NCBI RefSeq assembly: GCF_000317515.1
Contig: NC_019738.1
Span: 2,471,224 to 2,503,223, forward strand
DNA: 32,000 bases
Source of the DNA: Allocoleopsis franciscana PCC 7113
GTDB lineage: Bacteria; Cyanobacteriota; Cyanobacteriia; Cyanobacteriales; Coleofasciculaceae
Direction of reading: 5' to 3'
In this document: positions 156-30,711 of the stretch, piece after piece
How positions within the stretch are numbered: the stretch's first letter is position 1
How the letters are laid out: each line of letters begins with the position of its first letter
Position numbers and translations under genes: made by a program
The notes under the pieces: generated by a model
Seen by the model: the letters and a program-made list of their open reading frames with translations, nothing else
The model's database searches: none
Told to the model about the DNA's origin: nothing

Positions 156-1310
156 TTATTCGTTCAAAACTAAAGAAATAACCTCCACAAAAGATTGGGC
201 GGCTGAAGATGGATTTTTCGTGCTAATGAGTTGCTGAGATTGCTGACTCATTGAATCAATTAGTTCTGGATGTTCCAGAAACCGACGCATAGCGATCGCT
301 AATTCTTCAGGTGCAAACGGGTCAAAAATGTAACCATTCTTGCCCTCAATCACCATTTCTGCGGCTCCTGCCCATTTAGAACATAGAACAGGTTTCCCAA
401 AAACCATCGCTTCAAGCGCCACCATTCCCCATATATCTTCTAATGTGGGAAATACAAAAACATCTGCCTGTTGGAAGTATTTCCCTAGACGCCCATATTC
501 TACCCAGCCGACCCACTTGACCTGATCTTCTAAATGTTGATTTTTGATAAAGATTTCTAGTTCCTCTCGTTGCTCACCCGTACCAACAATCAGGAGTGAA
601 TAATCTAAATAGCCCTGAGATCGCAGAATAGAACAGGCTGCTAAAAGTGACTGAATCCCTTTTCTAGGTGTAATACGTCCCACATACAGAAAAATGGGAG
701 GCTTGAGCGTTTCATCGAATTGATCAACCGTCTCAAGACTTTGCTGTAAAGTGGTTGCATCCGGCACTAAATACGTTTTAGTAAACACTATTTCTGACTT
801 TGCACCCACCCCCTCAATTAGATAATCTTTAGCTCCATAACTATTAGCCACAAAGGCATCCGCATAGCGAGACATCACTCGTCGAAAAAGTGAACGAAGA
901 GTTGAATCTCGAAAATCTGAGTTGGGAGAACTGCCATCATAAATAATGATAAATCGCCACTTTCCCCAAGGTTTTAAAAGCAGCGCTAACAGAGTCCACA
1001 ACGAATAAGCTTGAGCCAAGATTACCTGTGGCTTAAATTGTATTAAGTGACCCATGATACCGGGAGAGAGTATCATTAGACGACGGCTGTAACCCTTCGT
1101 CTGAGTCATCTCTAGAGATTTCATCTCCCCGACAATTTTGATGACATCTGCGCCGGGAACGTCAGGATCGAATCCGGGCCAAACCAGACCGGTGTAAAAA
1201 ATTGTATTTTTAAATACCTTTGTGAATTCTCTCAATACAGGTTGCCAGTAAGCCCCCAGTTCTACCGAAGGTACTAACCAAGCAATGCGAATATCTTTAC
1301 TCTCATCCAT
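156..1310 (-). CDS. glycosyltransferase, GT-B fold (family 4/1-like)
   Basis: 384-aa ORF. The C-terminal half carries the GT-B donor-binding signature FVFPTLEDIWGMVALEAMVFGKPVLCSKWAGAAEMVIEGKNGYIFDP. It lies inside a sugar-modifying cluster. Confidence 0.8.
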   Translation of the reverse strand: MDESKDIRIAWLVPSVELGAYWQPVLREFTKVFKNTIFYTGLVWPGFDPDVPGADVIKIVGEMKSLEMTQTKGYSRRLMILSPGIMGHLIQFKPQVILAQAYSLWTLLALLLKPWGKWRFIIIYDGSSPNSDFRDSTLRSLFRRVMSRYADAFVANSYGAKDYLIEGVGAKSEIVFTKTYLVPDATTLQQSLETVDQFDETLKPPIFLYVGRITPRKGIQSLLAACSILRSQGYLDYSLLIVGTGEQREELEIFIKNQHLEDQVKWVGWVEYGRLGKYFQQADVFVFPTLEDIWGMVALEAMVFGKPVLCSKWAGAAEMVIEGKNGYIFDPFAPEELAIAMRRFLEHPELIDSMSQQSQQLISTKNPSSAAQSFVEVISLVLNE

Positions 1311-4107: not shown

Positions 4108-4268
4108 GGGTGCATCCCATTTGTACAAGAACACCTGGCGATTGGAAATCGCTGCTATAGAAACGAAGTCCGCCTGCGCGGACTCAATGCCAGCCTGCGG
4201 AGGCAGGCTTTGTTTGTATAGCCCCAGACTTCTAGTCTGTGGGCAATTTGTAAAATCGGGATGCTCCC
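4108..4268. mobile_element. MITE-like non-autonomous element, 161 bp
   Basis: The terminal inverted repeats are GGGTGCATCCCATTTGTACAA (4108-4128) and the reverse complement of 4248-4268, GGGAGCATCCCGATTTTACAA (17/21 identical). They are flanked by direct GTGATTAG at 4100-4107 and 4269-4276. There is no coding capacity, and the interior is an inverted dimer of a two-hairpin module. Confidence 0.7.
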
Positions 4269-4293
4269 GTGATTAGAGCCGATCATTGATGCT

Positions 4294-4710
4294 TCAGCCT
4301 TCTTTTGACTCCATCCCTAATCCCTTCAAATAACGTTCGATTAACAAAATGGCAACAATATCATCGATGGGACGAGGGGGTTCGCGCATTCCTTGAGGGA
4401 TGAGGCGTTGCAGTCCTGTGGGGGGGTACATTTGCCAATAGCGATCGCGTGCTTCTAAACTGCTGTAACGCTCATCGACCAAAACAATCGGCAATGAGGC
4501 TGATAACTCGCGCTCAAGTGTCTGTTTCCACTTTTTTGCCGTCGTTTGATCGCCCATCACTAAGGTGGTGATGGAGAATTGCTGACACAATTGTTGAAGG
4601 GTTGCGATCGCATCAGCAGACGGCACAACCTGATGGTAAAGGAGCTGTTGCTGCTTACCCATTACGGCTAAACCACATTTATCGCGTCCGGGATCAAAGC
4701 CTAAAAGCAA
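4294..4710 (-). CDS. YqgF/RuvX-like RNase H-fold nuclease (resolvase-like)
   Basis: 138 aa with a TTG start. The N-terminal LLGFDPGRDKCGLAV resembles the G-x-D-x-G-x-x-R-x-G-x-A motif of YqgF. VLVDERYSSLEA matches the second conserved DER(L)T(T)xxA block. It starts 24 nt downstream of the preceding gene. Confidence 0.55.
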   Translation of the reverse strand: MLLGFDPGRDKCGLAVMGKQQQLLYHQVVPSADAIATLQQLCQQFSITTLVMGDQTTAKKWKQTLERELSASLPIVLVDERYSSLEARDRYWQMYPPTGLQRLIPQGMREPPRPIDDIVAILLIERYLKGLGMESKEG

Positions 4711-4734
4711 GGAATTTCTTCTCGACTCAACAAA

Positions 4735-6309
4735 TCATGTTTTAAAAAGCACTTGTCCATTGTGCATCGCAACCAACTGTAATTTCAAGGGACCAGCGGT
4801 AGGGGTTGTTTCTTGAGTGATCGCTTTAATATCTACAGATTGACCATACTTTTCTAGCTGTTCAATAAAGTTAATGACTGTAATGATGCGACCATCTCCA
4901 ATCTGAATACTACCGAGTATCCCAGCACGACGCGCCCGGAACTGAGCGGCAGCTAGCAACTGATCGAGCCGCTGCCTGATTTGTTCATTAGTCATCGTTG
5001 AAGCATCGACAGAAACGGTAGCCAAGAGTTCCTCCGCTGGAAATACAACTTGATTAGGGACTGCATCTGCAAAAACTTGTATGTCCTTTTCGCCCTCCAC
5101 ATAGTTACCAACAGAGAGGATTCGCACCACATAGTCTTTCCCATCTTTAATCTGATTAATTAACACCTCAACCTGTGATTTAGGGATTTTGACCAGAGGC
5201 TCATCGGCATCTGTTCTATTCTGGCGAGTGATTTCAACAGCTTTGCGATTCGCTTCCCGCAATAGCTGTTCAATGGCTTGAGGAGCAGCCTTTGGATCAA
5301 CCACGCGCACAACACCAAAGGCCAGAACTTGACCACGAACCAGAGCGACATTACCCTGACGCAGCACTTGATAGTTCTGATAATACTGTTCTAGTGTTTC
5401 TACTTCCTGTCGTAAAAAAGCCAGTTGTTTTTCTCGTTCACCAAGTTGTTTTTCTTGAGCAGCCAGTTGGCTTTCTCGTTGCGTAAGTTCTTGTTCCAAT
5501 TCTTGGAGACGAGCTTCGCGCTGGGTAATCGCTGCTCTTAATTTTTCTTCCCGTTCTTTGTAGCGAGCCTCGCGCTGGACGATTACTTGCTTGAATTCTT
5601 GTTCCAGTTCTTTGAGGCGTTCTTCACTCTCAGTAATCGCTCTGGCTTTTTCTTGTAGTTCCTGATTGCGTTCTTTAATGGTTTGATTTTTCCGGGCTAG
5701 TTCCTGATTGCGCTCCTCAATGGTTTGACCTCGCTTGACGAGTTCCTCATCTCGCTGAGTCACTGATTCTCTTAATTGAGCGACTTGAGTTTGAAGTTGA
5801 GTAATTTGCTCAGTGAGTTGATTTCGCTGCTGCAACAACTGCTGGCGTTCTGCTAGGAGTGACTTAATTTCTGATCGGAGTACCGTAGCCTGCCCAGAAA
5901 TATTTTTTAATTGAGCTTGAGCTTTTTGGAAATTTTGATTAATGATATCTAGACGCTTTTGAGCCTCAGATTGCTGGGTTCTAGCTTGAGTTAATTCACT
6001 CTCTACCTGCTGCTTCTGCTGATTAATCGTCTGGATTTCACCACGAGCAATTCTCAGATTTTTTTTGATTTCGTCGAGTCGTAAAAGCCCATCTCTAATA
6101 GAGCCACTTGTCGCGAACAAAATCCCTAAAGTTGTCGCAGAAATCAGACTACCCGTGATTACGGTCACCAAAGTGGCTGTCTTGCGAGGACGTAAATTAA
6201 ATAAGCTTAACCGCGCCTTGCCTACTTTCGTGCCAATGCGATCGCCTAAGGTGGCGATTACCCCCCCCAATAACAAAATTGCCACAATCAGGATATAACC
6301 GCTGGTCAT
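4735..6309 (-). CDS. membrane-anchored coiled-coil protein (resembles cyanobacterial DUF3084 family)
   Basis: The N-terminus has hydrophobic helices (ILIVAILLLGGVIATLG; TATLVTVITGSLISATTLGILFA). A ~270-aa Q/E/R/L heptad-rich region follows, with internal repeats (ERNQEL twice, TQREAR/VQREAR), then a globular C-terminus. Confidence 0.6.
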   Translation of the reverse strand: MTSGYILIVAILLLGGVIATLGDRIGTKVGKARLSLFNLRPRKTATLVTVITGSLISATTLGILFATSGSIRDGLLRLDEIKKNLRIARGEIQTINQQKQQVESELTQARTQQSEAQKRLDIINQNFQKAQAQLKNISGQATVLRSEIKSLLAERQQLLQQRNQLTEQITQLQTQVAQLRESVTQRDEELVKRGQTIEERNQELARKNQTIKERNQELQEKARAITESEERLKELEQEFKQVIVQREARYKEREEKLRAAITQREARLQELEQELTQRESQLAAQEKQLGEREKQLAFLRQEVETLEQYYQNYQVLRQGNVALVRGQVLAFGVVRVVDPKAAPQAIEQLLREANRKAVEITRQNRTDADEPLVKIPKSQVEVLINQIKDGKDYVVRILSVGNYVEGEKDIQVFADAVPNQVVFPAEELLATVSVDASTMTNEQIRQRLDQLLAAAQFRARRAGILGSIQIGDGRIITVINFIEQLEKYGQSVDIKAITQETTPTAGPLKLQLVAMHNGQVLFKT

Positions 6310-9073: not shown

Positions 9074-12000
9074 ATGGACGCCGTAGCCATCTTGACATTG
9101 ATTGGACTTGTCATTGGCATCATTGCTGGTGTGGTGCAAGTCCTAGATTTTCTGGAAAAGCAACGGGAAAAAAAGCGATCGCTGGCAAATCAGACACCAT
9201 CGCCCCAGATTGCACAAGTTCCAAGTGCACCACCAGAAGTAGGCAGGACTCCTAAATCCATTGCATCATCGCATCAAGATTGGGGGGAAGCGGTTGATAC
9301 CTCAGCCTTTTACGGACGTACAGAAGAACTCGCCAAGTTAGCGCAATGGATTGTGCGCGATCGCTGCCGATTAGTCGCACTGTTGGGAATGGGGGGAATT
9401 GGCAAAACCTCTGTGTCGATTAAGCTAGCTCAGCAGATTCAGGATGAGTTTAAGTTTGTTATTTGGCGAAGCTTACGCAATGCTCCACCTGTTGAGGATA
9501 TCCTGAAAGACCTGATTAAAGTTCTCTCCAATCAGCAGGAAACTCAATTACCAGACACGTTAAACGAGTTAGTTGCCCGACTGATCGATTACTTGCGACA
9601 GTCCCGATGTTTACTGGTTTTGGATAATGCTGAATCGATTCTCCAAGGAGGCAATCGTGCAGGAGAGTATCAACAGGGCTATGAGGGATATGGTGAGCTT
9701 TTCAGACGCATTGGCGGAACCGTTCATCAAAGTTGTTTAGTATTAACCAGTCGGGAGAATCCTAAAGACATTGCTTCCGCCGCAGGAGATGCTCTTCCTG
9801 TTCGATACATGCAATTAATTGGTTTGAAATTAACAGAAGGAGAAGAACTATTTCACGCTCTGAAAGTCTCTGGTTCAGAAGCACAGGAGCAGGAACTAAT
9901 TGATTTTTACAAAGGCAGTCCCCTGGCTCTAAAAATTGTTTCCACAACGATTCAGGAGCTATTTGATGGGGATATTGCTCAATTTTTGCAGAGCAAGGTA
10001 GTTGTTTTCAGTGACATTCGCGATTTACTAGACCAGCAGTTTAATCGGCTGTCGGATTTGGAACGAGAAGTGATGTACTGGCTAGCAATTAATCGTGAGG
10101 CAGTTTCTTTATCCGAGTTGCGAGAAGATATTGTCTCGTTGGAATCACCGCCAAAGTTGATGGAAGCGATACAGTCTTTAGTGAGGCGATCGCTCATCGA
10201 AAAATGTACCGCGCTCTTCACGCTGCAACCTGTGGTCATGGAGTATTTAACTGACCGATTGATTGAACAGGTTTGTGATGAGATTAAAACCGGAAAAATT
10301 GAAGTATTTAACAGATACACTCTGATTAAGGCAACAGCGAAAGATTATATTAGGGAGACTCAAGTTCGCCTGATTCTTAAACCTATTGCTGAGAGGATTC
10401 CCGTAGGGGCGCACGGCTGTGCGCCCTTGCAACAAATGCTCTCAAAATTACGAGAGCAATTTTCTCGTAAACCAGGGTATGCAGGTGGAAATATTCTCAA
10501 TCTGCTTTGCTATCTACAAACAGATTTAAATGGCTTAGACTTTTCTAATTTGAGAATTTGGCAAGCGTACCTACAGGGCATGACTTTACAACATGTTAAT
10601 TTCGCTCACTCTAACTTATCCAAATCTGTTTTTACTCAAGCTTTCGACAGAATTGTGTCAGTGGCATTTAGCCCAGATGGAAAACTTTTAGCCACAGGTG
10701 ATGTAGTGGGTCAAGTTCGCATTTGGCAAGTTGTGGATGGTCAGCAACTTCTTACCTTTCAAGGACATAGCAATTGGGTATCGTCGATTGCTTTCAGTCC
10801 CGATGGTCAACTGCTTGCCGTTACTGGTCATAGTGACTCAACCATACAACTGTGGGAGGCTAGCACTGGAAAGTGTGTGCAAATTTTGCCAGGGCATACC
10901 GGTTGGGTATCGTCGGTGGCTTTCAGTCAGGATGGTCAAACCCTAGCTAGTGGCAGTAGTGATTTAACTGTGAGGCTGTGGTCGTTCAGCACTGGGCAAT
11001 GTCTCCGTATTTTGCAGGGTCATACTGATCGGGTGTGGTCAGTGGCTTTCAGTCGGGATGGTCAAACCCTGGTTAGTGGCAGTAATGACCAAACAGTGAG
11101 GCTGTGGGAGGTCAGCACTGGGCAGTGTCTCCGTATTTTGCAGGGTCATACTGATCAGGTGCGGTCGGTAGTATTCAGTCCCAATGGTCAAACCGTGGCT
11201 AGTGGTAGTGCTGATCAAACCGTGAAGCTGTGGGAAGTTAGCACGGGTCATTGTTTGAAAACTCTAGAGGAAAATACTAATGGCACAAGGACAATTGCCT
11301 TTAGTCCTGACGGTCGAATCTTAGCCAGCGGCAATTATGACCAAACCGTGAAGCTGTGGGAGGTCAGCACTGGGCAGTGTCTCCGTATTTTGCAGGGTCA
11401 TACTGATCGGGTATGGTCGGTTGCTTTCAGTCCTGATGGTCGAATCTTAGCCAGCGGCAGTGATGACCAAACAGTGAGGCTGTGGGAGGTCAACACTGGG
11501 CAAGGTCTCCGTATTTTGCAGGGTCACGCGAATAAGATAGGGTCGGTTGCTTTTAGTTGTGATAACCAATGGCTTGCTACTGGCAGTGGTGACAAAGCAG
11601 TGCGGCTTTGGGTGGCTAACACTGGGCAATGCTCGAAAACTCTACAGGGTCATCACAAGGCGGTAACTTCCGTTGCCTTTAGTCCAAATAGTCAAACCCT
11701 AGCTAGCAGTGGTGACAATACAGTGCGGTTGTGGGATGTCACGACGGGTCATTGTCTCCATGTTTTGCAAGGTCACGGCAGTTGGTGGGTACAGTGCGTT
11801 GCCTTCAGTCCCGACGGTCAAACGTTAGCGAGTGGCAGTGGTGACCAAACAGTGAGGCTTTGGGAGGTCACCACTGGGCAAGGTCTCCGTGTTTTACAAG
11901 GTCATGACAGTGAGGTGCGGTGTGTTGCTTTTAGTCCCGATAGTCAACTACTTGCTAGTGGTAGTCGTGACGGCATGGTGCGGCTGTGGAAAGTGAGTAC

Positions 12001-12502
12001 AGGGCAATGCTTGAACACTCTACAAGGGCACAACGATTGGGTACAGTCTGTTGCCTTCAGTCAGGATGGTCAAACCCTTGCTAGTAGCAGTAATGACCAA
12101 ACAGTGAGGTTATGGGAAGTCAGCACTGGGCAATGCCTAAAAACTTTGCAAAGACAAACCCGATGGGGAGAGTCCCCTGCATTCAGTCCCGATGGTCAAC
12201 TTTTCGCGGGCGGCAGTAATGATGCAACTGTAGGTTTGTGGGAAGTTAGCACGGGGAAATGTCTGCAAACTTTGCGAGGGCATACTGATAAGATCTGGTC
12301 GGTTGCTTTCAGCCGCGATGGTCAAACCCTAATCAGTGGAAGCCAAGATGAAACCGTTAAGATTTGGAATGTCAAGACGGGTGAGTGCCTAAAAACTCTA
12401 AGAGCTGCTAGACCCTATGAGGGTATGAACATCACCGGAGTTACAGGTTTGACGGAGGCTCAGAAAACCATGCTGAAAACTCTGGGGGCGGTTGAGAGTT
12501 GA
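9074..12502 (+). CDS. STAND NTPase (NB-ARC/AP-ATPase-like) with N-terminal TM helix and 14 C-terminal WD40 repeats
   Basis: 1142 aa. Residues 1-25 are hydrophobic ([20 protein letters not shown]) and are followed by EKQREKKRS. Walker A GMGGIGKT is at 9386-9409 and Walker B LLVLDNAE at 9611-9634. There are 14 units of ~42 aa ([40 protein letters not shown]). The tail [26 protein letters not shown] is typical of cyanobacterial WD40 proteins. Confidence 0.85.
10643..12409 (+). repeat. in-frame array of 14 WD40-coding units, ~126-bp period
   Basis: GCTGTGGGAGGTCAGCACTGGGCAGTGTCTCCGTATTTTGCAGGGTCATACTGATC occurs identically at 11101-11156 and 11353-11408 (252 bp apart). Several neighbouring units differ by only a few bases. 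Confidence 0.9.
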
Positions 12503-27183: not shown

Positions 27184-29982
27184 ATGCAGTTGACTATGCC
27201 AAATTTCCCTAAGCCCAGTGGTGACCTACCTGAAGTCTTGAGTCCGTTTAATCTACGCCATTATTGGCTGCTTGCTTACTGGGTCTACTTCCGTCCGACG
27301 GCGTTTCATCGCTACCTCTACCAAGCCTCTCCCGATGTTTATCAGTTGAGGGGTTATCGCAAATTTGTACAGACGTGGAGGATTCGAGCCTATCGCAATA
27401 TTTATCTGATGCTGCCATTGGCGGTCGTGTTAATGGCTTTACTTGTGGGATTAGTGCTGTTCCTGTACAAATCAATCACCGTTGTTAACAACACCGCTTG
27501 GGTAAATGCGATCGCCGTGTCCCCAAACGGGCAAATTGCCGTCACCGCCTCTGGCGATCGCGCCTTGAAAGTCAAAGTGCCCTCCGCTGATAGCTCCCTG
27601 AAAGTTTGGAATTTGCAGTGGGGTTCACAAATGCACACCCTGATTGGTCATGAACATGGTGTCACCGATGTCGCTATCACCCCAGATGGACAGAAAGCCA
27701 TTTCGGCATCCCGCGATCGCACGCTCAAAGTCTGGGACATCCGGCGGGGTACTCAACTGCACGAACTCAAAGGTCACAAAGAATGGGTGAGCCATCTGGT
27801 AATTACCCCCGATGGGCATCAAGCTATCTCCTCGTCGGGAGATAAAACCTTGAGGGTTTGGGATATCGACCAAGGCATCCCCCTCCAAACCCTAACGGGT
27901 CATAATGGTGAGATCTGGGATATAGCGGTTACACCTGATGGGCAACGGGCGGTTTCTGCTTCTGCCGATCGCACCTTGAAAGTTTGGGACTTAGCTCAAG
28001 GGAAAGAACTCTACACCCTGAGTGGTCATGGTGCTTGGGTCACCAAGGTCGTCCTCACCCCAGATGGCAAGCAGGCGATTTCCGCCTCATCGGATAAAAC
28101 CTTAAAAGTGTGGGACATCGAACAAGGGAAAGAACTCTACACCCTAACCGGTCATAGTAACTCGGTTCTCGATGTTGCCTTATCCCCCGATGGCAAGCAA
28201 GCCGTTTCTGCTTCGGCTGATCGCACCCTGAAAGTATGGGATATCCAGCAAGGAAAATTGCTTAACACCCTAACCGGACATCAGGGCTGGGTGACCAGTG
28301 TGGCAATGGCCTCCGATGGTAAGCAAGTGGTTTCTGCTTCTTCTGACCAAACGATGAAAGTGTGGGACTTAGGCAGTGCGATCGCGCTACATACCTTAGC
28401 GGGTCATCATGCTTGGGTTACAGCAATTGCGGTATTGCCAAAAACGGCACGCCTAATATCTGCTTCCTTTGAAGGCCCCCCCAAACTCTGGAGCCTGAAT
28501 CGTGGCATAGAACAGCCAATGCTAGGCGTGATTGGCACGGGAATTGGCATGAACGTATCCTTCGCCATAGCCTTGACTTTCATGGTACTGGCTGGAGCCG
28601 TGAGCCTCGCCATCTTTTTAGCCATCAGCGTCATTGCCTTGGGCATTATCGGCAATATTACTGCCAGCCTACTCATTGGCCTCTTCGGCAGCCTCGGATT
28701 TTGTGTCGGCTTTTTGATGGCGGATCGGATTGCTGCCGATCCAATGCTCGAAGAAGTGTACCAGGCGAGAAACATCAGCCTCACCCTCACGATCATTTCT
28801 GGGATTCTCTTCGGTCTCCTCGTGGGCATTTCCTTTGCACTGTCGAGCCGCACTGCAACCGGGGTCTTTGCTAGCATCGTCTTCATTCTGGTTCTGGGTA
28901 TCGGTGTCGGCATCGTTGTCGCTTGCGTGGTCACAGAGGCTTTGAGCTTCAACGGTCGCTTACGACCGGGAATCCGGGCAGGGGAAGCGGTTAGCATCGG
29001 CTTCAATTTGCTGGTTGCGATTGGGGCGTTACGCCTCCCGATTTACCCGATTCAGTTCTTGATGGCACTCTTGGGTCGGTTTAGGGAAAAATGGCATCCG
29101 GCGGCATGGGACGAGTTGCTGGTTTTGCCGGTTCCTAGAACCCAGGCATTCCTCCAATCGCACCTCCAAGCATCGGAACGCGAAGGACTGCGCCTCGTGG
29201 CAGATGTGGCTCGTAACCCGTTTCAGCGGCCTTGGGCACAGCGAGCCTTACAAACCCATCTACACAAAGTCTCTGCACCGCTTCACTTCCTCTATGACTT
29301 GTTGACTTCTGAGGATTTCAATACTTATCTTCTCGCACCTGTAAGGAGGGTCGATTGGCAGCTCATGCCGACAACCCGACAAGTCTTGTTAGGGGAATTG
29401 GCCCATCAGCGAGTGGATGGCAGTGGCGCTGGCATCAATCAAATCGCCGAAAATCTGGTCTGGGGGTTAACCCGGTTCGTTCGCAATCGCCAGCGTTCAC
29501 CTCTGACTCGCTTTGCCGGTCTGATTTATGAGCTAACTTATACCAAGACCTTTGAGGCCGTGGATTTCAACCTATTCGCCTTGGAAAAAAGCTACGCTGG
29601 CTTAAGCCAGTATCCCGGTGGTGTAGAAATAGCTGACTCGTTTGAAGCACTGGCTACGTTTTTGACCTATGACCATCTGTCTGACTTGACGGGGGCTAGA
29701 GATATGGTTTCGTGGCTGTCGGTTCAGGAGTTTTCGATCCGTCCGACGGTGCTGAGTGCTCTCCTACGTCTTGGAGACATTGGGACAAAGGTGAAGGCTT
29801 ATCAGGCTGCCACGACCACGGTTGAGCAACTGGCTACTTTGGCTCAGATCACGAGTGCCCTGGAAATTTTGGATGAAGAGGTGGTGGAACAAGTCTTGGT
29901 GCCAGAGCAGGCTATCTTGAGGCGCATCATTCGCCAATGGCGGTGCCTGGTGAGTCAAGCGATGGCACAAGTGGGTCAATAG
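27184..29982 (+). CDS. membrane protein: TM helix, 8 WD40 repeats, 5-6 TM segments, unrecognised ~300-aa C-terminal domain
   Basis: 932 aa. TM1 is approximately aa 74-95 (27403-27468). Eight units of the type VTDVAITPDGQKAISASxDRTLKVWDIxxGxxLxTLTGH span about 27490-28530. A hydrophobic block spans about 28550-29060. The C-terminus is helix-rich. No GxxxxGK[ST] P-loop occurs anywhere in the protein. Confidence 0.8.
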   Translation: MQLTMPNFPKPSGDLPEVLSPFNLRHYWLLAYWVYFRPTAFHRYLYQASPDVYQLRGYRKFVQTWRIRAYRNIYLMLPLAVVLMALLVGLVLFLYKSITVVNNTAWVNAIAVSPNGQIAVTASGDRALKVKVPSADSSLKVWNLQWGSQMHTLIGHEHGVTDVAITPDGQKAISASRDRTLKVWDIRRGTQLHELKGHKEWVSHLVITPDGHQAISSSGDKTLRVWDIDQGIPLQTLTGHNGEIWDIAVTPDGQRAVSASADRTLKVWDLAQGKELYTLSGHGAWVTKVVLTPDGKQAISASSDKTLKVWDIEQGKELYTLTGHSNSVLDVALSPDGKQAVSASADRTLKVWDIQQGKLLNTLTGHQGWVTSVAMASDGKQVVSASSDQTMKVWDLGSAIALHTLAGHHAWVTAIAVLPKTARLISASFEGPPKLWSLNRGIEQPMLGVIGTGIGMNVSFAIALTFMVLAGAVSLAIFLAISVIALGIIGNITASLLIGLFGSLGFCVGFLMADRIAADPMLEEVYQARNISLTLTIISGILFGLLVGISFALSSRTATGVFASIVFILVLGIGVGIVVACVVTEALSFNGRLRPGIRAGEAVSIGFNLLVAIGALRLPIYPIQFLMALLGRFREKWHPAAWDELLVLPVPRTQAFLQSHLQASEREGLRLVADVARNPFQRPWAQRALQTHLHKVSAPLHFLYDLLTSEDFNTYLLAPVRRVDWQLMPTTRQVLLGELAHQRVDGSGAGINQIAENLVWGLTRFVRNRQRSPLTRFAGLIYELTYTKTFEAVDFNLFALEKSYAGLSQYPGGVEIADSFEALATFLTYDHLSDLTGARDMVSWLSVQEFSIRPTVLSALLRLGDIGTKVKAYQAATTTVEQLATLAQITSALEILDEEVVEQVLVPEQAILRRIIRQWRCLVSQAMAQVGQ

Positions 29983-30033: not shown

Positions 30034-30052
30034 TCCCCCCTTAATAAGGGGG
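30034..30052. repeat. perfect 19-bp palindrome CCCCCCTTA-A-TAAGGGGGG
   Basis: Read directly from the sequence. It lies in the 110-bp gap between the convergent WD40-membrane gene and the XRE gene. No adjacent T-run is present on either strand. Confidence 0.8.
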
Positions 30053-30092
30053 GTCAGTGTGTAAGACCAAATCCGGTCAGAAAACCTTGAGA

Positions 30093-30305
30093 TTACTCTT
30101 GAACGGTTTCAATTAAATCTTCCATCAAGACATCAAATGTGCGAGCCAGTTTTTGCAGCGCTGTCACATCCACCGTTGCCATCCCTGCCGATCGCGCGTA
30201 TGTGGTCACTGTGCTGTAGGGAATTCCTGCCCGTGCAGCAACTTCTTTGAGCGTCCAACCCTTCTCGTCAGCCAGATCGCGTATTCGCAGCCTAACTAGA
30301 CCCAT
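30093..30305 (-). CDS. XRE/Cro-type helix-turn-helix protein (70 aa)
   Basis: The HTH is GWTLKEVAARAGIPYSTVTTYARS. A purine-rich RBS (AAGGGAAAGG) lies just upstream of the ATG at 30305. Confidence 0.8.
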   Translation of the reverse strand: MGLVRLRIRDLADEKGWTLKEVAARAGIPYSTVTTYARSAGMATVDVTALQKLARTFDVLMEDLIETVQE

Positions 30306-30436: not shown

Positions 30437-30514
30437 ATGATATCAAGACCGCAGCCAATCGCAATGGCTGTACCTCGGTTGCGTCGGATTGCAGCGATAG
30501 GGAGGGACGTATGA
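30437..30514 (+). CDS. 25-codon leader ORF (MISRPQPIAMAVPRLRRIAAIGRDV)
   Basis: GGAGG (30424-30428) lies 8 nt upstream of the ATG. Its TGA stop (30512-30514) overlaps the ATG (30511-30513) of the next ORF as ATGA. It is too short for the ORF track. Confidence 0.3.
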   Translation: MISRPQPIAMAVPRLRRIAAIGRDV

Positions 30515-30711
30515 CTTACAAAGATCGACTGTCCCCTTGGTGCATTGTCCGTCACCTCCCGCAAGCGCAAAGCCGTGTAGTAGCGTGTTCTCGTCGTCGA
30601 AATGATGCTGAAGAACATCTCCGGGTGCTCAGGAAGATGACACCAACTGCCGACTACAGCATTATCTTTGACCCCATGATGGAAAGTACTGACACCATCG
30701 CCAATACTTAA
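30511..30711 (+). CDS. small hypothetical protein (66 aa)
   Basis: GGAGGGA (30501-30507) lies 3 nt upstream of the ATG, and a terminator hairpin lies downstream. The composition is plausible (LSPWCIVRHLPQAQSRVVACSRRRNDAEEHLRVLRKMTP). The overlapping minus-strand ORF looks like an antisense artefact. Confidence 0.5.
   Translation: MTYKDRLSPWCIVRHLPQAQSRVVACSRRRNDAEEHLRVLRKMTPTADYSIIFDPMMESTDTIANT

Follow-up and report, generated by a model that had tools for sequence, protein, structure and literature searches.

We identified a gene for a WD40-repeat membrane protein in a 32,000-nucleotide stretch of the Allocoleopsis franciscana PCC 7113 chromosome (the window, meaning the whole stretch that was analyzed). 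The encoded protein belongs to a small family of NLR-like (nSTAND1) proteins embedded in the membrane, which has not been described before and is absent from Pfam, NCBIfam and PADLOC. Judging from sequence comparisons, it is most likely an ATPase-less, WD40-bearing derivative of that nSTAND1-related family. With relatives that carry an NLR-type ATPase and adjoin caspase-like protease genes, it has the look of a receptor for cell death or defence whose ATPase was lost. We consider it somewhat better than an even chance (roughly 0.55) that a member of the nSTAND1 membrane family has here lost its ATPase and been domesticated as a transmembrane receptor or scaffold. The database entries for the protein (AFZ18004.1 and WP_051055650.1, from a complete chromosome) are labelled only as WD40-repeat, beta-propeller or hypothetical, and a literature search by accession found no paper citing either of them.

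ATPase-bearing relatives and their partner genes

A word-indexed search with residues 430-932 of the window protein recovered 23 clusters. Several of these consist of a transmembrane (TM) and helical region followed by an AAA_16, ATPase_2 or nSTAND1 domain, with no preceding WD40 domain. An exhaustive search of 1.84 billion representative proteins with a profile gave 295 proteins at E ≤1e-3, including 114 at E ≤1e-30. Our class counts rest on the 72 members of at least 800 amino acids (aa) that were listed. Approximately 55 of the 72 are of the ATPase type, which consists of an N-terminal region (N-region), a first TM helix (TM1) at approximately residues 66-98, more hydrophobic helices of very variable total length, a helical domain, a P-loop about 300 residues further on, and a winged helix. 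Eleven are of the WD40 type and, like the window protein, have no P-loop. Both the WD40 domain and the ATPase are found in P0029 (1315 aa) and P0031 (1231 aa), and P0099 and P0116 combine a degenerate propeller with the ATPase. The initial annotation had supposed that the protein might belong to a system whose NTPase is encoded elsewhere. This guess was near the mark, as most relatives carry an nSTAND1 ATPase fused at their C-terminus.

The window protein aligns with residues 1-904 of P0031 across all 928 amino acids of its shorter form at 42% identity. P0031 then continues with a 327-aa ATPase, and these C-terminal 327 residues score above the Pfam cut-offs for both nSTAND1 and AAA_16. The window protein ends at the linker SQAMAQVGQ (SEAGGEVGR in relatives), which is where the ATPase of its relatives starts. 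An ATPase remnant downstream of the gene is excluded, as the next gene, which encodes an XRE-type regulator, lies only 110 bp beyond the stop codon.

A hidden Markov model (HMM) of the N-region, built locally from the N-terminal 70 residues with the window protein included, matches 69 of the 77 family members of at least 800 aa, always at residue 1. The constant module of the family therefore comprises N-region, TM helices and helical domain, to which WD40 and ATPase domains are optional additions. The TM helices beyond TM1 vary in number and are rich in small residues. A word-indexed search with residues 5-97 returned a single match of 163 aa, which was uninformative. Two long metagenomic proteins, P0024 (1819 aa) and P0025 (1473 aa), consist of a bare member fused in frame to a WD40-type member, and P0024 has an ATPase in addition. 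Tandem paralogues thus merge at times into one open reading frame (ORF). No relative was found in a search of viral contigs, and a phage or mobile origin thus has no support.

In a neighbour-joining tree of 114 helical domains, which is rough and carries no support values, the deep branches are all of the ATPase type. All WD40-bearing forms, with or without the ATPase, fall inside one crown group, and ATPase-less forms are scattered through the tree. This pattern fits an ATPase-type ancestor, a later insertion of WD40 repeats into the loop between TM1 and the second TM helix (TM2), and a subsequent loss of the ATPase that may have occurred more than once.

A scan of one genome per species, with a query alignment of six sequences, identified 19 loci: 12 of the WD40 type, six of the ATPase type and one truncated KSB1 fragment without a class. 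The WD40-type loci are found in filamentous and other cyanobacteria, namely Stenomitos (92% identity), Allocoleopsis, Waterburya, Coleofasciculaceae, Symplocastrum and one bin labelled Sericytochromatia. The ATPase-type loci belong to Hormoscilla, one uncultured cyanobacterium and four Chloroflexota. At four loci (L002, L015, L016 and L017) there is a conserved gene directly upstream of the family gene, and the two genes overlap in L015 and L016. The upstream partner encodes CHAT and nSTAND1 domains in Hormoscilla (L016), EAD9 and nSTAND1 domains in L017, nSTAND1 alone in L015, and caspase C14 with a P-loop ATPase in Nostoc (L002). An arrangement of this kind is the hallmark of the NLR-like conflict systems known from multicellular bacteria (PMC7159879 and PMC8195603).

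The Hormoscilla pair (5315-10064 of L016, JBFRWI010000053.1) is an intact operon of two overlapping genes and lends itself well to experiment. The first gene encodes a 654-aa protein with CHAT and nSTAND1 domains, and the second a membrane nSTAND1 protein of the family with 935 aa. A 392-aa gene lies just upstream of this pair (4128-5306). The Nostoc locus (1242-8375 of L002, JAQYWQ010000107.1) is a decayed tandem array with caspase C14 and P-loop ATPase fragments. The array also holds a bare member with a second copy of the N-region at its C-terminus, a separate WD40 ORF, and an ORF with TM, helical and nSTAND1 regions. When it is read over one stop codon and one frame junction, the order is N-region, WD40, TM cluster, helical domain and ATPase. 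The locus looks like a degrading cluster of paralogues.

Architecture and predicted topology

The ORF exists exactly as it was first annotated (Table 1). However, the real start is most likely the second methionine codon, because all homologues share the N-terminus MP(T/N)FP and the RefSeq form has 928 aa. The initial annotation had also raised the concern that the gene might be an artefactual fusion of two ORFs. It is not, because a single unbroken ORF of 928-939 aa is present in five separate assemblies as well as in a complete genome. Together with the ratio of nonsynonymous to synonymous substitution rates (dN/dS) of 0.12-0.18 for the whole gene, this excludes a fusion artefact or a pseudogene. 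The only split version is at L001, and most other genes on that contig are likewise split. A 199-aa antisense ORF (28407-29006, minus strand) lies within the region that codes for the TM cluster. It looks conserved across loci because it is the mirror of a conserved sense gene, with a K/R/P-rich translation of the hydrophobic codons, and it is not a gene.

Table 1. Features of the WD40 gene and its 3' flank, in window coordinates (residue numbers refer to the encoded protein)
Feature	Position	Strand	Remarks
Whole gene	27184..29982	+	932-aa ORF; probable true start 27196, 928 aa; WP_051055650.1 / AFZ18004.1
Conserved basic N-region, aa 5-69	27196..27390	+	Family consensus MPTFPTYSGELPECLNPLNLRHYLLLAYWVYFRPTALKAYLYQADPELY; predicted helical and cytoplasmic; model helices 24-35, 38-48, 58-66
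TM1, hydrophobic core aa 74-95	27403..27468	+	Mean Kyte-Doolittle (KD) hydropathy 2.9; model helix 68-101, one 34-residue helix; predicted inside to outside
Eight-bladed WD40 beta-propeller, aa 104-438	27493..28497	+	Pfam, model, Foldseek; linkers of ~5 residues (to TM1) and ~9 (to next TM helix); predicted extracytoplasmic
Hydrophobic TM cluster, aa 447-616	28522..29031	+	Hydropathy, alignment, model; colinear with TM cluster of P0031
Juxtamembrane motif G614-A-L-R617-LPIY621-PIQ, then basic RFREK stretch	29023..29076	+	Motif found throughout family
All-alpha domain, ~300 aa, without known match	29077..29979	+	Alignment A1, AlphaFold2 model; predicted cytoplasmic
Perfect 19-nt palindrome CCCCCCTTAATAAGGGGGG	30035..30053		Between convergent ends of WD40 gene and XRE gene

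The domain order originally proposed is borne out, and consists of a basic N-region, TM1, eight WD40 units, a hydrophobic cluster of approximately 170 residues and an all-alpha domain of approximately 300 residues. The N-region of about 65 residues lies directly before TM1 and contains the motif LNPLNxRHYxLLAYWVYFRPTAL at residues 21-44. The propeller is identified by Pfam PF00400 at 246.7 bits (cut-off 27), with eight WD40 stretches at residues 99-437. A full-length AlphaFold2 model (predicted local distance difference test, pLDDT, 84.9; predicted TM-score, pTM, 0.67) was used for secondary structure. It has 31 strands in residues 107-437, and the flanking helices end at residue 101 and start at residue 447. 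The blades have block pLDDT values >85 with the exception of a loop at residues 121-140. The best Foldseek neighbours in the PDB are eight-bladed propellers, with target-normalized TM-scores (TMt) of 0.91-0.94 and root-mean-square deviations (rmsd) of 1.2-2.1 Å. The match to ODA16 has an rmsd of 1.2 Å over 336 columns, and the match to Tako8 has a TMt of 0.94.

Hydropathy places the hydrophobic cluster at residues 446-627, and the model helices in and before it span residues 68-101, 447-518, 529-554, 557-582 and 589-615. Residues 450-512 form a stretch of 63 residues without conserved charge, which probably makes two or three passes. A conserved arginine-rich loop (residues 591-599) precedes the last hydrophobic segment (602-616), in which F607 and N608 are nearly invariant. 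In the juxtamembrane motif, G614, R617 and Y621 are invariant in WD40-type members.

The initial report of a protein with no P-loop also stands, in that the Walker A pattern G-x4-GK[ST] is absent from the whole protein. No AAA or STAND domain was matched in Pfam or NCBIfam, and no kinase (Pkinase) match was found in any part of the protein with Pfam. Residues 1-103 and 430-932 have no significant match in Pfam, NCBIfam or PADLOC, and the N-terminal piece gives two sub-threshold Pfam matches. Searches of PADLOC-DB v2 returned only a WD40-driven match to HEAT-ARM_XIII and a marginal one inside the WD40 region, with no system-specific match beyond WD40.

The helical domain had been described as unrecognised, and it remains so in Pfam, NCBIfam, PADLOC, PDB sequences, Foldseek searches of the PDB, and BFVD. 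Our alignment of the domain (A1) comprises 16 sequences with a mean column identity of 51%. The window protein is its first sequence, and every invariant column of the domain is present in it. Conserved motifs include HPxxWDELxVLPLPG, ARNPFQR, YLHxxxxPLxFLY, DWxxLPxxRQxLLGEL, TPLTRFA, YPGGxEIAxSFEA and PEQxILRRIIRQWR. An AlphaFold2 model of the domain made with this alignment has 15 helices (pLDDT 86, pTM 0.83). A sequence-profile search against the PDB gave a best E value of 0.28. Foldseek gave a best E value of 0.37 against the PDB, with query-normalized TM-scores (TMq) ≤0.28 and only generic four-helix bundles, and a best E value of 0.13 against BFVD. As neither the PDB nor BFVD contains a significant neighbour, any fold assignment is rejected. 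The structural check proposed in the initial annotation thus yields a confident fold with no known neighbour, and the modelled domain is novel and confidently folded.

The predicted topology derives largely from the relatives. In P0073 and P0095 there are only two hydrophobic helices between the N-region and the helical domain with its ATPase, and in P0099 and P0116 TM1 is followed by a propeller-like insert, a single TM helix, the helical domain and the ATPase, in that order. The site of propeller insertion is the loop between TM1 and TM2 of the minimal two-TM members. The ATPase requires cytoplasmic ATP, therefore the N-region and the helical domain, which in relatives lies immediately N-terminal to the nSTAND1 ATPase, are predicted to be cytoplasmic and the TM1-TM2 loop extracytoplasmic. 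P0031 has the same TM cluster as the window protein and ends in an ATPase, which implies an odd number of passes after the propeller in both proteins.

The distribution of charge around TM1 points in the same direction. In the window protein, residues 55-73 contain six lysine or arginine residues and no aspartate or glutamate, and residues 96-115 contain one lysine or arginine. Across 69 members, the mean K+R count in the 15 residues before TM1 is 2.57, compared with 0.70 in the 15 residues after it (Wilcoxon p = 2e-9). In the 14 WD40-type members these values are 4.43 and 0.29. Based on the parity with two-TM and WD40-plus-ATPase relatives and on this positive-inside bias, the propeller is most likely outside the cytoplasm, in the periplasm or thylakoid lumen, with the N-region and helical domain inside. 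Given the short linkers in the model, it would be clamped to the membrane surface at both ends. The trans-side placement suggested in the initial annotation is thus supported. Its remark that such a placement would be unusual is correct in that predicted periplasmic WD40 domains are uncommon, but there is a precedent in membrane-spanning Ser/Thr kinases of Planctomycetota (PMC11032199).

Conservation of the locus and possible function

The gene tpiA lies upstream in divergent orientation at 11 of the 12 WD40-type loci, as it does in the window; the contig of the twelfth (L010) ends at the 5' side. At ten WD40-type loci folP lies beyond tpiA. Counted over orthologous cyanobacterial loci, tpiA adjoins the gene in nine and folP follows in eight. 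No downstream gene is conserved across these loci. Compared with five orthologues, dN/dS ranges from 0.05 to 0.39 by region, and is 0.08-0.15 for the propeller. The setting of the gene had been called consistent with an accessory module. The fixed synteny with tpiA, and mostly folP, and the purifying selection do not bear this out; the gene is vertically inherited, constrained and single, and does not belong to an accessory island. For the same reasons, we suggest domestication into a stable receptor or scaffold, as opposed to a rapidly evolving immune sensor.

As a domesticated receptor or scaffold, the protein could operate as follows. The propeller would bind a putative conserved extracytoplasmic partner, and the TM bundle would pass the signal on to the N-region and the helical module in the cytoplasm. 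In the sister proteins the same module may provide the input to the nSTAND1 NTPase and a caspase switch. In the window protein the output would instead rely on contacts with other proteins, among them perhaps an nSTAND1 protein whose gene lies elsewhere in the genome.

Several known systems share features with the family. The likeness to the nSTAND1 conflict systems (PF20703; Kaur, Burroughs, Iyer, Aravind 2020, 2021) is that most relatives carry an ATPase above the nSTAND1 threshold, and that relatives are paired with CHAT, caspase or EAD9 nSTAND1 genes. Additionally, the distribution among filamentous cyanobacteria and Chloroflexota fits the multicellular bias described in PMC7159879 and PMC8195603. 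However, the window protein has no NTPase, and its WD40 domain is inserted into a loop predicted to be extracytoplasmic and does not form a cytoplasmic sensor at the C-terminus. The module of N-region, TM helices and helical domain is not mentioned in the available portions of these two papers, and no Pfam model matches it. Another component treated there, EACC1 of the EACC1-caspase system (System 4, PMC7159879), is similar in that a conserved, small-residue-rich TM component is paired with a caspase gene, and sometimes with nSTAND1. EACC1 is a small protein with one TM helix whose gene lies 5' of the caspase gene, whereas the members of the present family are large TM proteins encoded 3' of the caspase-bearing gene and have an N-region and helical domain of their own. 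Residues 1-103 of the window protein have no significant Pfam match even at E ≤10, in a Pfam copy in which the presence of an EACC1 model is unconfirmed.

The membrane-spanning Ser/Thr kinases of Planctomycetota have WD40 or TPR arrays that are predicted to be periplasmic (PMC11032199). Like the window protein they would join such a WD40 array to a cytoplasmic output module, but they are mostly single-pass, with an N-terminal kinase and C-terminal WD40 repeats. The window protein has no kinase, its propeller lies between TM1 and a multi-helix bundle, and its cytoplasmic part would be the novel helical domain. KAP and YobI-family Tmn proteins (PMC13001434) are a precedent for membrane-integrated P-loop NTPases that act as sensor and effector, which is relevant to the ATPase-type relatives. 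They belong to another NTPase clade, place their TM helices differently, have no propeller and share no domains with the family, and the window protein has no NTPase. The soluble Apaf-1-like NB-ARC/NACHT-WD40 STAND proteins have the same GH/WD kind of propeller, and the wider family is tied to STAND NTPases and caspase-like proteases. These proteins are soluble and have the NTPase followed by WD40, whereas the present family is membrane-embedded and reverses the order, with WD40, TM cluster, helical domain and then the NTPase if one is present. One such STAND protein is encoded in the window itself (9074-12502, plus strand). It has 1142 aa, with an NB-ARC/NACHT/nSTAND1-like NTPase followed by 13 WD40 repeats, and lies approximately 15 kb upstream with no evident link to the gene described here.

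A more far-reaching interpretation, which we regard as possible yet tentative, is that the whole family consists of transmembrane NLR-like receptors that signal from outside to inside. A periplasmic WD40 domain would act through the TM bundle and helical domain on the nSTAND1 ATPase, and from there on the caspase or CHAT nSTAND1 protein; the window protein would be a domesticated receptor of this lineage that has lost its ATPase but continues to signal to an nSTAND1 partner from another part of the genome. Were this the case, filamentous bacteria could start protease-based death or defence from an extracellular or envelope cue. Bacterial NLR-like (STAND) systems have been understood as cytoplasmic sensors, and the present family suggests a membrane-embedded branch, in some members of which the predicted position of the propeller is on the periplasmic or lumenal side, with the ATPase and caspase-type partner remaining in the cytoplasm. 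The 300-aa all-alpha domain and the 65-aa N-region are both new, and described in no database. As PCC 7113 is cultured and has a complete genome, the window protein is open to experiment on what a STAND-derived receptor does after loss of its NTPase.

At the other extreme, the protein may be a domesticated housekeeping scaffold of the envelope or thylakoid that retains no link to conflict systems, with the propeller organizing a conserved periplasmic or lumenal complex and the helical domain providing an anchor to a cytoplasmic structure. The strict synteny with tpiA (and mostly folP) fits such a role, as do a propeller that is conserved and not diversifying, the loss of the ATPase, the absence of caspase or nSTAND1 neighbours, and the absence of relatives from viral contigs. 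However, the distribution is narrow, being confined to one group of filamentous cyanobacteria, so that a core cyanobacterial function is not indicated, and we find this scaffold doubtful as a separate explanation. It overlaps the domesticated receptor or scaffold that we prefer, the sole difference being whether or not an NLR-like partner still receives the output. Less probable again is a membrane-disrupting executioner, in which small-residue-rich TM helices oligomerize into a pore, the propeller and helical domain regulate assembly, and the NTPase opens the pore in ATPase-type members. Between TM1 and the helical domain, relatives do have long hydrophobic repeats of the GVAxGVAxG type whose length varies widely. 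The nearly invariant N608 would favour helix association, and the region N-terminal to the NTPase is generally the effector in STAND proteins (Kaur et al. 2020, PMC7159879). The TM helices of the window protein, however, are ordinary ones that do not form glycine-zipper repeats, and in ATPase-type operons a CHAT or caspase effector is already supplied by the neighbouring gene. A constitutive membrane pore without an NTPase switch, encoded at a fixed locus under constraint, is also hard to square with a suicide effector, and we consider this mechanism unlikely.

The placement of the propeller itself has an alternative. If TM1 and the later helices were re-entrant or monotopic, or if the N-region were translocated, the soluble mass of the protein would lie in the cytoplasm. 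Canonical GH/WD propellers of cyanobacteria are mostly cytoplasmic sensors, the NB-ARC/NACHT-WD40 protein in the window being an example. In addition, residues 447-518 may make either two or three passes, and of the two models compatible with parity one is at odds with the arginine-rich loop at residues 591-599. However, TM1 is modelled as a straight single helix with no hairpin, and its charge bias is strong and family-wide. By the positive-inside rule, translocation of a 70-residue N-tail with 10 lysine or arginine residues is very unfavourable, and an N-out orientation in the two-TM relatives would place their ATPase outside the cell. We therefore consider a cytoplasmic propeller very unlikely.

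Several observations weigh against our interpretation of the protein as a receptor or scaffold derived from nSTAND1 proteins. The topology is drawn from sequence logic, and the model presents residues 447-518 as one 72-residue helix where two or three passes are probable. If the segment at residues 602-616 spans the membrane, as it does in two-TM relatives, the arginine-rich loop before it would face outward, contrary to the positive-inside rule. The tree from which the order of WD40 insertion and ATPase loss was read has the roughness noted above. PADLOC returns nothing significant for the ATPase-type relatives. No nSTAND1 or caspase gene adjoins any WD40-type locus; the window gene likewise has no CHAT, caspase or nSTAND1 gene beside it, its upstream neighbour being tpiA. 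A link to death or defence in Allocoleopsis franciscana is therefore conjecture.

Neighbouring features in the window

The initial annotation had drawn attention to a palindromic repeat and a small XRE gene downstream of the WD40 gene. The palindrome is not a repeat. It occurs once in the window, where none is expected by chance, and forms a single hairpin between the convergent gene ends. A scan for consensus terminators gave no call at this position, and the palindrome has no T-run; it is probably a bidirectional terminator hairpin.

The XRE gene (30093-30305, minus strand) encodes a 70-aa XRE/Cro-type helix-turn-helix protein, and a divergent 66-aa ORF without a Pfam match lies at 30511-30711 on the plus strand. 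This pair is common only to the closest relatives (L001, L004 and L005), and it may represent a small module, regulatory or toxin-antitoxin-like, that has no relation to the WD40 gene. Given this restricted distribution and the single-copy palindrome, the two were rejected as parts of a system with the WD40 gene. At L001, on a closely related metagenomic contig, the WD40 and XRE genes are separated by a 280-aa gene of the PhyH family (11378-12220). The window lacks this gene, which indicates an insertion or a deletion.

At the far end of the window, a group 1 glycosyltransferase (156-1310, minus strand) also scores above the cut-off of the GT4-conflict family PF20706 (36.6 vs 26 bits). It adjoins a family 2 glycosyltransferase at 1481-2419.

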